Positions 40,388 to 57,492 of a DNA stretch of 64,000 nt are shown in pieces; the first letter of the stretch is position 1; each line of letters starts with the position of its first letter. The notes beneath the pieces were generated by a model that was not told where the DNA came from, did no database searches, and saw only the letters and a program-made list of their open reading frames with translations. Made by a program: the position numbers and the translations under genes. The DNA is taken from positions 61,861-125,860 of the IMG/VR virus record IMGVR_UViG_3300017909_001085; one strand, 5' to 3'. This DNA is from a virus. Lineage: Duplodnaviria > Caudoviricetes.

Positions 40388-40971
40388 CTGTAAGGTTTGC
40401 CGCATATCCATCCCACTAAACTATATCTCTTACCTTTTGTGACTGGTCGAACTCTATGATAAGTAAATGATGGAAACACAATTGCTTCTCCAGTCTTCAC
40501 TTGACATAATTCAGTTCTATTCTCTTCATGTGGTAGTCCTAATTCAAATTCAAACTCACCACCTTCATACTCATGATTAAGTAGTACCGAGAAACTAATC
40601 TTTCTAATCTTACCTTGTAGATACTTGTCAGCATCAGCATACGGCACACTTCTCTGGTCGGCGTGCCAATTATAATGTTGTTCAGGACCATATGTTGTAA
40701 ACTGTAAGTCTTCGATTGCATCATAATCAAAGTTCCATTTGTTATTAATATTCTCAAGATGTATCATTTCAAGTAAAGGTTTGTAAATGAATTCAGTATC
40801 AGGATTTCTTTTGAACCAAGATATAGAACTATTTCTATGTCCTTGTATCGCCGCTTCTGTACTATCAATTTTAGCGTCTTCTAAATTTATTTCACCCATT
40901 GAAATAATCTTATCAACTTCAGGTAAAGTAAAAATAGGTTTTGTGGTTGAGTAGCAATATTGTAAAATCAT
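40384..40971 (-). CDS. 2OG-Fe(II) oxygenase (prolyl-hydroxylase-like)
   Basis: WHAD...RKIS...YEGGE...FPSF..HRV.PV..G.RYSLV.W. Confidence 0.88.
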   Translation of the reverse strand: MILQYCYSTTKPIFTLPEVDKIISMGEINLEDAKIDSTEAAIQGHRNSSISWFKRNPDTEFIYKPLLEMIHLENINNKWNFDYDAIEDLQFTTYGPEQHYNWHADQRSVPYADADKYLQGKIRKISFSVLLNHEYEGGEFEFELGLPHEENRTELCQVKTGEAIVFPSFTYHRVRPVTKGKRYSLVGWICGKPYR

Positions 40972-41204
40972 ACTGGTAACTCCGCTGTTGTCTTTGGAAG
41001 ATAATGTAAGTCTTGTGCATTGACAGTAACTTTGTCTTTCAATGTCTTACTAATAAACTTACGAACATCTTCGGGTTCAAGTTCATGCTCATCACAGTAG
41101 AGCAAGATTGCATCCATGTGAGTAACACATTTAAGTTGTACAATGTCTTCAATGATTTTACTAAATCTTTTCGGTGTCATAGGTTCAGGATTCATCAATC
41201 CCAC
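40968..41204 (-). CDS. gp33: Late transcription co-activator
   Basis: FS..IE, DAI..YC, LK.K....A..L.YLP motifs. Confidence 0.85.
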   Translation of the reverse strand: MGLMNPEPMTPKRFSKIIEDIVQLKCVTHMDAILLYCDEHELEPEDVRKFISKTLKDKVTVNAQDLHYLPKTTAELPV

Positions 41205-41695
41205 CTGTAGAAAATATGGTCATCTATTTGTCCTATTCTAGTTTTCTCTTTGTTCCAATCTGGATTTACATAGTCAGCATGATAGTGTGTAGCACCTTCA
41301 ACCATACCAGCATATCTGTTAGTTAAAATTCTATTGACAAGTCTCAAAATTCTTTGATATGCTTCTGTGTCATGTATGATTTCTGGTTTGCCGTCACAGA
41401 ACCAAGAGAACTGACATTTGTGTTTTCTAGGTACATCTTTACCTTTTTGTTCTTTCCACCATGTAGAATATTGTGCTTGATATACGACTTCACAAATCGT
41501 ATCAGGAAATCTACTATCACGAACACGATTAATAACTACAAGTCCTACTGCTATTTGACCAGCGGTAGATTGTGACTTTGCTTCGTGATATATGTTGTTA
41601 GCAAGACATACTTTTGAATTAGTGCTTGGAAGTTTTACATCATCTGCTAATGCGCTAGATGCAAGTAATAAAAATGGTACAATATATTTAATCAT
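41195..41695 (-). CDS. SleB-like cell wall hydrolase (Hydrolase_2)
   Basis: CLA.NIYHEA, NRV....FP.TIC.VV, CQFSW and GATHYHA motifs; start re-called at ATG 41695 (signal peptide). Confidence 0.88.
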   Translation of the reverse strand: MIKYIVPFLLLASSALADDVKLPSTNSKVCLANNIYHEAKSQSTAGQIAVGLVVINRVRDSRFPDTICEVVYQAQYSTWWKEQKGKDVPRKHKCQFSWFCDGKPEIIHDTEAYQRILRLVNRILTNRYAGMVEGATHYHADYVNPDWNKEKTRIGQIDDHIFYRWD

Positions 41696-41701
41696 AATCA
41701 C

Positions 41702-41730
41702 ATTATAATAGATTACATTTGATTTGTCAA
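41702..41730 (-). promoter_or_regulatory. Consensus sigma70 promoter for the SleB-like gene (leaderless geometry)
   Basis: TTGACA-17-TATAAT, then 6 nt to ATG. Confidence 0.8.
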
Positions 41731-41739
41731 TTAATAAAA

Positions 41740-42098
41740 TGGTAAAAGTGTCACTTTTCTGTTGCAAGGTAAGTGACCAACCCCTCAGATTATGCCGCTA
41801 AGGCGTACTCTGAATGTGCAAAGTTATCGTTTGCATTTGTAGTGTTTGACCAATTACGCAGTCACCCGACAGTTCTACTCTTTCCTATCTACGTCAGTCG
41901 ATCCTATTTCGCCCCCATCATAATAAGTCTTGCATGTGCTATTGAGTAGTTATTTATGCAAATGTACTCTACACATCTTTTTCTGAATAATCTTATTATT
42001 TCGTAGTCATCCATTATTATCTCAAAACTTATTATGGTGGAGGCGGAGGGTATCGCACCCTCGTCCTGCCCGTCATTCAGATTGTATCAACAAACTGT
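41740..42098 (-). ncRNA. ssrA: Circularly permuted (two-piece, alphaproteobacterial-type) tmRNA gene
   Basis: The acceptor piece ending GAGGGTGCGATACCCTCCGCCTCCACCA (42035) precedes the coding piece starting GGGGGCGAAATAGGATCGAC (41916). G3:U pair present. Tag ANDNFAHSEYALAA* at 41834-41790. Outer ends are approximate. Confidence 0.93.
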
Positions 42099-42103
42099 AA
42101 TTT

Positions 42104-42134
42104 TATTTATACTACACTCAAGCAACTTTGTCAA
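42104..42134 (-). promoter_or_regulatory. Overlapping sigma70 and late promoter for the tmRNA
   Basis: TTGACA-17-TATAAA, where the -10 element is part of TATAAATA (42104-42111). Confidence 0.75.
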
Positions 42135-43182
42135 GTACATATGGGTCAATATCTAAATATTTGCCCCATTCAGTATAATAGTGTCTCATACCCACTTCAT
42201 CATGTATCGTACTGTTCTCATGTCGACCATGTAGAATATTTCTATTCTCTGTACCTTCACGCATCGTTACACCTTGACCAGCAACACCAATCAAGTCTTC
42301 ATGTAAGTTGCGACCAAAAGGACCCCAAATAGTATTGTGTGCTTTGATACGACTTGCTCTTTCTTCTTCAGTATCTTTTCTTAGACCATAACCTCTGAAC
42401 TCAATGAGAACTTTGTTAGGACCAAGAGGTGTTACTGTGTCTGAACGATACGCACTTCCTCTAAGATTAAAGTTAAACCCTGGAAAGAGGTCAACCATAT
42501 ACCACTGATTAGGCGGCAGGTTAGGAAAAGATAGTTCGCCTCTATCTTCAAATCCATCATACTCTTCATAGTTGACAGTAAAACTACTCACATTGACATG
42601 ACCGTTTGCAAAAGGAATATTTTTTCTTGCAAAGTACTCATCATTAAATCCAGACACTCTATTAAAGTAATGCATAAAGTCGTGATAGAATTCACTGTTG
42701 GTGTCGTGCCATAGTTTGTAGTTCGTATCAATCACTGCTTTATGATAGTGAAAGACTTCTAGTTCTTCTGTATCGATTGCGTCTGCGATACAATCAAATG
42801 CACCTGCAGTCCATTCTTCTACTGACTGTGTAGGATTAGGGTCAAGCGTTACCCACACCATACCCCCATGCTTGACTTCACAGTGTATCTCATTACCTTC
42901 ATAAGGACAAGACAAGCAACCAGAGACTTGCTGAATAGGATGGTCTCTAAATGCTCTTACACCATTATAGTCATTCACTGCAATTACATTCACACCTGCT
43001 ATTTGCGTAGTGCGAAACTCGCCAGTATCATACATCTCAGAGATGTGACACATTGGTACCCAGACTTTACTGAATATTAGTTCTTGTTCTTGTTTGTATA
43101 CTTCGTAGTTATTATATGCTCTACTACTGATTGCTTCTATTCGTGGTGCTGATGACCACTGCTTATGATTACGAGGTGGCAT
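42118..43182 (-). CDS. msmA: Methanesulfonate monooxygenase large subunit-like ring-hydroxylating oxygenase lacking the Rieske motif
   Basis: EVFHYHKAVIDTNYKLWHDTNSEFYHDFMHYFNR, HNTIWGPFGRNLHEDL and TIHDEVGMRHYY motifs; no CxH...CxxH. Confidence 0.75.
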   Translation of the reverse strand: MPPRNHKQWSSAPRIEAISSRAYNNYEVYKQEQELIFSKVWVPMCHISEMYDTGEFRTTQIAGVNVIAVNDYNGVRAFRDHPIQQVSGCLSCPYEGNEIHCEVKHGGMVWVTLDPNPTQSVEEWTAGAFDCIADAIDTEELEVFHYHKAVIDTNYKLWHDTNSEFYHDFMHYFNRVSGFNDEYFARKNIPFANGHVNVSSFTVNYEEYDGFEDRGELSFPNLPPNQWYMVDLFPGFNFNLRGSAYRSDTVTPLGPNKVLIEFRGYGLRKDTEEERASRIKAHNTIWGPFGRNLHEDLIGVAGQGVTMREGTENRNILHGRHENSTIHDEVGMRHYYTEWGKYLDIDPYVLDKVA

Positions 43183-48362: not shown

Positions 48363-48617
48363 TTACATACGCTCTTCAAGTTTCTTCTGTAATTTTCTCC
48401 AGCGTTTGACTGCTTCTTTTTTCATACGCTGTTTTTTCTCAGATGGTTTTTCATAATGCTTACGCATCTTGAGTTCTTTGAGAACACCTGCTTTTTGTAC
48501 CTTCTTCTTGAAGATACGCATTGCTTTCTCTAAGTTACCGTCTCTAACAGTAACCGTTAACCCACCATCTCTAGCAGGTTTTTCTTTTCTTGTATGTCTG
48601 TAGTTTTTATAAGTCAT
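48363..48617 (-). CDS. rpsU: Ribosomal protein bS21
   Basis: V.VR.GNLEKAMR.FKKK..KAG..KE...R.HYEKPSEKK. Confidence 0.9.
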   Translation of the reverse strand: MTYKNYRHTRKEKPARDGGLTVTVRDGNLEKAMRIFKKKVQKAGVLKELKMRKHYEKPSEKKQRMKKEAVKRWRKLQKKLEERM

Positions 48618-57337: not shown

Positions 57338-57415
57338 CTGCCCGTAGTTCAGTTGGATTAGAACAACGGTCTTCTAAACCGTAGGTCGCAGGTTCGAGTC
57401 CTGCCGGGCAGGCCA
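57338..57415 (+). tRNA. tRNA-Arg(UCU)
   Basis: CTGCCCG/CGGGCAG acceptor stem, ACGGT-cttctaa-ACCGT anticodon arm, GGTTCGAGTCC and encoded CCA. Confidence 0.95.
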
Positions 57416-57418
57416 ATT

Positions 57419-57492
57419 CATGCGATGGCAGAGTGGTTATGCAGTGGATTGCAAATCCATCTAGGCAGGTTCGATTCCTGTTCGCATGTCCA
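57419..57492 (+). tRNA. tRNA-Cys(GCA)
   Basis: CATGCGA/TCGCATG acceptor stem, GTGGA-ttgcaaa-TCCAT anticodon arm, U73 and encoded CCA. Confidence 0.93.

Follow-up and report, generated by a model that had tools for sequence, protein, structure and literature searches.

Genomic Context of the Locus

The tmRNA gene described here is carried by an uncultured marine T4-like phage, represented by an IMG/VR record of 125,860 bp that is estimated to be 70% complete. The window, to which all coordinates refer, is the right-hand half of this record (64 kb) and has a GC content of 34–43% throughout. The tmRNA gene is complete, is of the two-piece type and, with a GC content of 35–38%, matches the phage. 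Its neighbors gp32, gp59, gp33 and PhoH are T4-like and both flanks consist of T4-like phage genes. On the upstream side lie PhoH, a PD-(D/E)XK nuclease, two 2OG-Fe(II) oxygenases and a Rieske-less ring-hydroxylating oxygenase-like gene; on the downstream side lie a secreted cell-wall hydrolase, gp33 (40968–41204), a further oxygenase, gp59 and gp32.

For the oxygenase-like gene directly upstream of the tmRNA (42118–43182, minus strand, 354 aa), the match to alpha subunits of ring-hydroxylating oxygenases is confined to their catalytic domain (PF00848, 35.6 bits). Many viral contigs encode this gene at 75–91% identity together with a gp33 of only about 50% identity, a degree of conservation that, from these comparisons, appears unusually strong for a phage accessory gene. 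The hydrolase gene (41195–41695, minus strand, 166 aa; PF07486, 86 bits) encodes a signal-peptide-like N-terminus and is inserted between the tmRNA gene and gp33. It has its own sigma-70 promoter, a perfect TTGACA-N17-TATAAT (41702–41730, minus strand), which sets the downstream limit of the tmRNA unit.

Further genes related to translation are found elsewhere in the window, namely a phage bS21 gene (48363–48617, minus strand, 84 aa, 70.1 bits to PF01165) and the genes for tRNA-Arg(TCT) and tRNA-Cys(GCA) (57338–57492, plus strand). The initial annotation, made from the sequence of the window, had reported bS21 and two tRNAs, and these genes are indeed present; that they act jointly with the tmRNA as a kit would be an extrapolation from their presence. 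A search of the 125.9-kb record (about 70% complete) for smpB found none, and function of the phage tmRNA would thus depend on a compatible host SmpB.

Architecture of the tmRNA Gene

ARAGORN predicts a permuted tmRNA at 41699–42129 on the minus strand with the tag ANDNFAHSEYALAA, which is identical to the tag that had been read by the initial annotation. Both relevant Rfam families match over their full length: RF04321 (tmRNA_permuted) with 114.6 bits (cut-off 47, E 1e-21) and, as the initial annotation had anticipated, RF01849 (alpha_tmRNA) with 109.6 bits (cut-off 50, E 5e-29), the latter being the match retained among the overlapping families of its clan. The permuted tmRNA gene is therefore real and no chance match. 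The initial annotation had described a circularly permuted two-piece tmRNA with an intact tag, and each feature that it named lies in its place on the minus strand.

The order of the parts is permuted: the tRNA-like 3′ half with T-arm, acceptor 3′ strand and CCA comes first, and the 5′ half and the tag frame follow downstream. The acceptor piece (42035–42098, minus strand) comprises the distal P2 strand ACAGUU (42098–42093), the T-arm (42062–42046; GAGGG / TGCGATA / CCCTC), the acceptor 3′ strand CGCCTCC (42045–42039) and ACCA (42038–42035). Its P2 strand starts 5–6 nt past a TATAAATA motif, and its 5′ end may be the start of the primary transcript, 6–8 nt after this motif. The coding piece (41747–41916, minus strand) begins GGGGGCGAAATAGGATCGAC and contains the acceptor 5′ strand GGGGGCG (41916–41910), the P2 return strands, a weak PK1 region, the tag frame and a 3′ hairpin. 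Read from the sequence, the two acceptor strands form a stem of seven base pairs that includes G3:U; the discriminator base is an A, and CCA is encoded in the gene. The acceptor helix also forms in the predicted fold of the precursor. In relatives this stem is invariant because the search pattern selected for it, which makes covariation uninformative for the acceptor stem.

The tag frame (41834–41793, minus strand) starts with the resume codon GCA (Ala), encodes ANDNFAHSEYALAA and ends with the stop codon TAA (41792–41790). Upstream of the tag, the second stem of PK1 (TGAC / GTCA) is present and the first stem is weak, with 2–3 bp in the subclade as judged by eye only. The terminal hairpin of the coding piece (41750–41778, minus strand), which has the conserved loop ...CCUUGCAACAGAA, corresponds to the last positions of RF01849. 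A terminator scan of the region past this hairpin found none.

A Promoter With Two Readings

Upstream of the acceptor piece, at 42104–42134 on the minus strand, TTGACA (42134–42129) is followed after 17 nt by TATAAATA (42111–42104), and the fused promoter that the initial annotation had placed there is present. The motif can be read as sigma-70 –35 and –10 elements, with TATAAA as the –10 element, and equally as a T4-type late promoter. The –10 reading is without the usual final T, which is why a promoter scanner did not list it. The –35 element sits within the last codons of the oxygenase-like gene.

The fused motif TTGACA-N17-TATAAATA has its sole exact match in the 64-kb window here, and with up to one mismatch 0.11 occurrences would be expected in the window by chance. 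TATAAATA alone occurs 17 times in the window as compared to 5.9 expected. Among related viral loci, TATAAATA lies 57–74 nt before the CCA end in 82 of 111, and TTGACA with at most one mismatch accompanies it at a spacing of 16–18 nt in 58 of these 82 (36 exact). The fused promoter is conserved even in loci whose upstream gene differs. By its position, its enrichment in the window, its conservation in relatives and the presence of a gp33 gene, TATAAATA has the attributes of a T4-type late promoter.

T4-type late transcription does not need a –35 element. That one is nevertheless kept speaks for additional use by the sigma-70 holoenzyme, and the comparison of related loci supports transcription by the polymerase in its sigma-70 form as well as in its gp55/gp33 form. 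From this dual promoter, we reasonably infer expression both early and late in infection. The initial annotation had proposed the same timing, and conservation of the promoter in relatives bears out its basis. In the literature that we searched, the conserved dual promoter is new.

Selection on the Mature RNA and the Tag

When the gene is compared with its nearest relatives (L062 and L096), both mature pieces, the coding piece up to the end of the 3′ hairpin, prove nearly invariant, whereas the spacer between them and the downstream flank have strongly diverged. The coding piece shows three substitutions in about 170 nt and the tag frame a single one, a synonymous change from TTA to CTA. In a comparison of 62 loci, the outer two pairs of the T-stem occur as GC, CG, UA and AU, and each pair of proximal P2 is represented by 4–6 pair types with compensatory changes. 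For distal P2, strands from the same locus pair better than strands from different loci (–11.6 versus –10.4 kcal/mol; better in 47 of 62 loci, p = 2e-5), which amounts to a modest covariation signal at the sequence level. The 3′ hairpin with its ...AACAGAA loop is kept in 92 of 97 distinct coding pieces while the stem sequences differ. Viral tags start with ANDN in 68 of 81 cases and end with LAA in 72 of 81, and their middle part is variable. Comparison among relatives hence demonstrates that both RNA pieces and the tag are kept by selection.

Some viral tags depart from the common form. Four loci (L063, L075, L099, and L115) encode a tag of 29 residues that starts with ANDNALS and still ends with ALAA, two others (L083 and L084) encode a 29-residue tag AKKSTT... 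that ends with AASA, and the tag AKDHITLPSGSKF of L067 has an end that is not a hydrophobic degron.

A different role for such an RNA has to be considered. The tmRNA might be a decoy that binds host SmpB or ribosomes and thereby blocks trans-translation of the host. There is a precedent in mycobacteriophage DS6A, whose gene comprises only the tRNA-like domain without a tag and has been reported to block host trans-translation (PMC4131195), and the lack of an smpB gene in the phage record would fit a decoy as well. However, a decoy would need neither an intact tag nor an LAA end. The tag frame is intact and under selection, its sole substitution is synonymous, and the LAA end prevails among the phage tags, all of which counts against a decoy and makes this role highly improbable.

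The Spacer and Its Closing Stem

Between the two pieces lies an intervening sequence of 118 nt (41917–42034, minus strand), which is predicted to be removed on maturation. Its ends pair with each other (about 42037–42024 with 41931–41918) and prolong the acceptor helix. In the predicted fold of the precursor (–51.3 kcal/mol, z = –6.4), the acceptor helix runs on into this stem. Pairing of the spacer ends is far stronger within a locus than across loci (–10.3 versus –4.1 kcal/mol), and this holds for 64 of the 64 loci with distinct ends, a comparison which shows selection on the closing stem.

Viral spacers fall into two length groups, 8–37 nt and 53–266 nt. In contrast, alphaproteobacterial spacers (90 loci) have a median of 34 nt, only one of the 90 reaches 100 nt, and their longest open frame has 12 codons. 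Long viral spacers contain sense open frames that average 38.8 codons as compared to 19.4 in shuffled sequences and 27.5 in antisense. Several small-gene families that are unrelated to each other occupy such spacers, among them a membrane-type peptide found in 10 loci with a median pN/pS of 0.27. A PHROGs search with ten spacer proteins returned no matches.

A Small Protein Gene Nested in the Spacer

The spacer of the window contains a gene of 36 codons (41904–42014, minus strand) that starts with ATG at 42014 and ends with TAG at 41906–41904; the initial annotation had overlooked it. It is named after the motif ICINNYS, which is invariant across the family. Its stop codon is located 10 nt inside the mature tmRNA, and the last three codons together with the stop lie within the tmRNA 5′ end. 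Relatives have a ribosome binding site (GGAG or GAGG) 5–9 nt before the ATG, and the window has a weaker GAGA. Variable alignment columns are distributed over the three codon positions as 16, 13, and 30, and pairwise pN/pS ranges from 0.11 to 0.51. These substitution patterns show the nested frame to be a selected protein gene. AlphaFold2 predicts for the 36-residue protein a helix-turn-helix hairpin in which two helices are joined by the NNYS turn (pLDDT 92), and neither a Foldseek search of this model against the PDB nor PHROGs gave a match.

A profile search of 1.84 billion proteins found 14 clusters, 10 of them at E ≤ 1e-10 and several with differing C-termini. In IMG/VR, the gene is present in 79 viral loci, 43 of which have it inside a tmRNA spacer, five have the upstream acceptor strand only (by pattern), and 31 have no tmRNA strands around the gene. 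In the free-standing loci, no overlapping tmRNA was found by ARAGORN (31 of 31) or with Rfam (20 checked). Five of the 31 adjoin tRNA or tmRNA genes and the others have no RNA gene within 1.5 kb; in L231, for example, the gene lies between two protein genes. In three of the five (L291 702–881, L292 1426–1605, and L293 402–581), the ATG follows directly after the CCA of a tRNA-Gly(TCC) on the same strand, and 3′ processing of this tRNA would hence leave a leaderless message. L235 has the gene flanked by tRNA genes, and in L241 its neighbors are a tmRNA on one side and tRNAs on the other.

The presence of several unrelated small genes in the stem-closed spacers of related phages, together with the occurrence of the ICINNYS gene directly after tRNA genes elsewhere, might suggest that the locus is mainly a platform for expression and processing of the spacer gene, the tmRNA function being secondary or lost. 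We regard this as very unlikely, because 41 of 107 related loci have spacers of 8–37 nt without any gene and still keep the full tmRNA. Moreover, conservation extends to the tag frame and the 3′ hairpin, which are irrelevant to processing.

Known cargo in the spacers of permuted tmRNA genes comprises a tRNA-Ala gene and a repetitive element (PMC11915505). The phage spacers resemble these cases in that foreign sequence is accommodated without destroying the gene. They differ in that the cargo in the window codes for a protein, is under selection and has a reading frame that extends into the mature RNA. Our search of the literature for protein genes in tmRNA spacers found no description, and relative to the literature searched the coding spacer is new.

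Relatives and Related Systems

A 20-base core of the 5′ half occurs exactly in at least 119 IMG/VR contigs. Among the matches listed, most of these contigs have low GC and the same neighbors, and ARAGORN predicts permuted tmRNAs in 81 of them. The best database match of the gene is the annotated SsrA of four Melnitz isolates (75.9% identity over 56% of the gene). Melnitz, a phage of OM43 (Methylophilales), has been reported to carry, despite its OM43 host, a two-piece tmRNA of alphaproteobacterial type, together with a glutamine riboswitch (Buchholz et al., 2022; PMC9004378). The same study found permuted tmRNA sequences in 17 of 47 Melnitz-related contigs; among 18,146 phage genomes it counted 402 with a tmRNA gene, of which 53 had the two-piece type and were mostly marine (PMC9004378). 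A tmRNA database of 2025 holds 79 unique phage sequences (PMC11915505). Phage two-piece tmRNAs are thus already known as a class, and cases from marine phages have been published.

The Melnitz locus resembles that of the window in several respects: a permuted alpha-type tmRNA gene in a marine T4-like phage, the gene order PD-(D/E)XK nuclease, tmRNA, gp33, gp59, gp32, the TTGACA-N17-TATAAATA promoter, and a tag of the form ANDN...YALAA. Unlike the window, Melnitz lacks a cell-wall hydrolase gene at the corresponding position, and its tmRNA is followed at a distance of 8 nt by a glutamine riboswitch (RF01739, 52.8 bits). The gp32 proteins of the two phages are only about 57% identical. Its spacer also holds a different frame, with 54 codons instead of the 36 of the ICINNYS gene. 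This frame is unannotated and has a GGAG site. We considered it as a member of a protein family and rejected this assignment, as its only similarity to another spacer frame lies largely in residues that the tmRNA sequence dictates; protein-level selection was looked for in the 54-codon frame and was not demonstrable.

A search for RF01739 in the region 41400–42400 of the window gave no hit even at E ≤ 10. The riboswitch is present in Melnitz (L121, 3187–3235) and in two further loci (L023, 1019–1072; L060, 1903–1956), where it abuts the tmRNA end, with scores of 52.8–60.1 bits across the three; it is absent in L062 and L096. As it is located 3′ of the tmRNA hairpin, its target is more likely to be the gene that follows than the tmRNA itself, in contrast to how the Melnitz paper words it.

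With the two-piece tmRNA of the Caulobacter type (RF01849; Keiler, Shapiro and Williams, 2000, as cited in PMC9004378), the phage gene shares the gene order, the G3:U acceptor stem, the encoded CCA, the type of T-loop, the ANDN... start of the tag and the loop of the 3′ hairpin. In contrast to the RF01849 model, it lacks about 36 positions after the stop codon. Further differences are its 118-nt spacer with a gene, where the spacers of Alphaproteobacteria are short, a T4 late promoter motif upstream and the lack of a linked smpB. Phage-borne tmRNA genes are also found in other cultured phages, namely in the roseophages DSS3_MAL1 and MD18, Caulobacter phage CcrRogue and Pelagibacter phage Mosig, and one-piece genes in mycobacteriophage Bxz1 and Bacillus phage G. 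These six belong to other phage families, have other gene neighborhoods and have only short conserved blocks in common with the gene of the window.

Genes for tmRNAs often serve as integration sites, and prophages contain fragments of such genes (PMC9004378), which could suggest that the locus is leftover host DNA, an integration-site fragment or a mis-assembly without a role for the phage. Several observations speak against this idea and make it scarcely credible. Both halves are complete, GC content and flanks are those of the phage, and the position is common to Melnitz and dozens of viral contigs. Furthermore, no sampled bacterial genome matches beyond short conserved blocks, and the mature pieces are nearly invariant relative to L062 and L096 while the spacer diverges.

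The Host

The initial annotation had taken the form of the gene and its tag to point to an alphaproteobacterial host. Its premise is sound, as the gene form and ANDN... tags are typical of Alphaproteobacteria, but the host itself is not established by them: Melnitz infects OM43, which is not alphaproteobacterial, with the same type of gene at the same position, and the gene type hence does not identify the host. A BLAST search of the tmRNA gene against 401 genomes sampled from the class of a matching alphaproteobacterial MAG found short conserved blocks only (at most 60 bits). A scan of bacterial contigs returned 95 alphaproteobacterial or mis-binned contigs, with Pelagibacter absent from these.

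Three other routes to the host were tried and rejected. All 46 homologs of bS21 are metagenomic proteins, and the best matches of the two tRNAs are unrelated Acinetobacter phages and therefore uninformative. The gp32 protein is 55–57% identical to those of HTVC008M (a Pelagibacter phage), Melnitz and cyanophages alike, and is about equally distant from all of them. We consider SAR11 or another marine alphaproteobacterium a plausible host and lean slightly toward it; an OM43-like host is possible.

Two contigs binned as bacterial, L148 (NZGN01000038.1, 113 kb, "Marinovum" MAG) and L188 ("Flavobacteriales" MAG), have a GC content of 36–39% and phage-type tmRNAs with the tags ANDNFAPVEYANAA and ANDNVASVDYALAA, respectively. 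They probably are T4-like phage contigs in the wrong bin. Four marine alphaproteobacterial MAG contigs (L190, L181, L205, and L125; about 51% GC) encode tags of the form ANDNVASQD(Y/H/F)ALAA, which resemble the tags ANDNFASQDYALAA and ANDNIASQDFALAA of phage relatives. On the basis of tag similarity, these contigs are a possible lead to the donor or host lineage.

A Model for the Locus

Taken together, the locus is very likely a working phage copy of the alphaproteobacterial-type two-piece tmRNA gene with a spacer that doubles as a messenger. A single transcript would be produced from the fused promoter by host sigma-70 polymerase and by the late T4-type (gp55/gp33) polymerase. In this transcript, the upstream acceptor 3′ strand would pair with the downstream GGGGGCG, and, as folding and covariation show, the spacer stem extends this helix. 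By analogy with Caulobacter, host RNase P and 3′-end enzymes are expected to excise the spacer, and the acceptor and coding pieces would remain joined through the P2 helices. The mature RNA would be charged with alanine via the G3:U pair and work with host SmpB. In the infected cell, it could then free ribosomes that are stalled on broken messages and add the tag ANDNFAHSEYALAA, whose ALAA end would send the product to proteolysis.

The spacer would serve as messenger for the two-helix protein of 36 residues, and we infer that its translation takes place before or instead of maturation. As the nested frame runs through both the closing stem and the acceptor strand, no single molecule can be translated and take up the tRNA-like fold simultaneously. 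This relation might extend to a two-state pre-tmRNA. A translating ribosome would hold the closing stem and the acceptor helix open and thus block maturation. Cleavage would then remove the stop of the spacer message: with an RNase P cut at G1 and the stop codon 10 nt inside the coding piece, the freed spacer message would be left without a stop codon. Ribosomes stalled on it would be resolved by the released tmRNA, which would tag the small protein for destruction. Such a two-state mechanism seems unlikely. If it were true, the small protein would be made only from unprocessed transcripts, and its level would be coupled to the translation and RNA-processing capacity of the cell.

Implications

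As a very likely working tmRNA gene, the locus adds an example to a published class: marine phages of the T4-like type that infect streamlined bacteria bring a ribosome-rescue RNA of their own. The reason probably is that many ribosomes stall through host shut-off and message breakdown, in cells whose stock of ribosomes is small. That the dual early/late promoter is conserved suggests a demand for the tmRNA throughout infection. Furthermore, the supposedly disposable spacer of a stable RNA gene is a slot for small protein genes, and annotation overlooks small phage genes that are nested in RNA genes. The coding spacer raises a testable question, namely what decides whether a given transcript serves as messenger or as RNA precursor. 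Melnitz, a cultured phage with an unannotated frame in the corresponding spacer, offers a direct experimental system.
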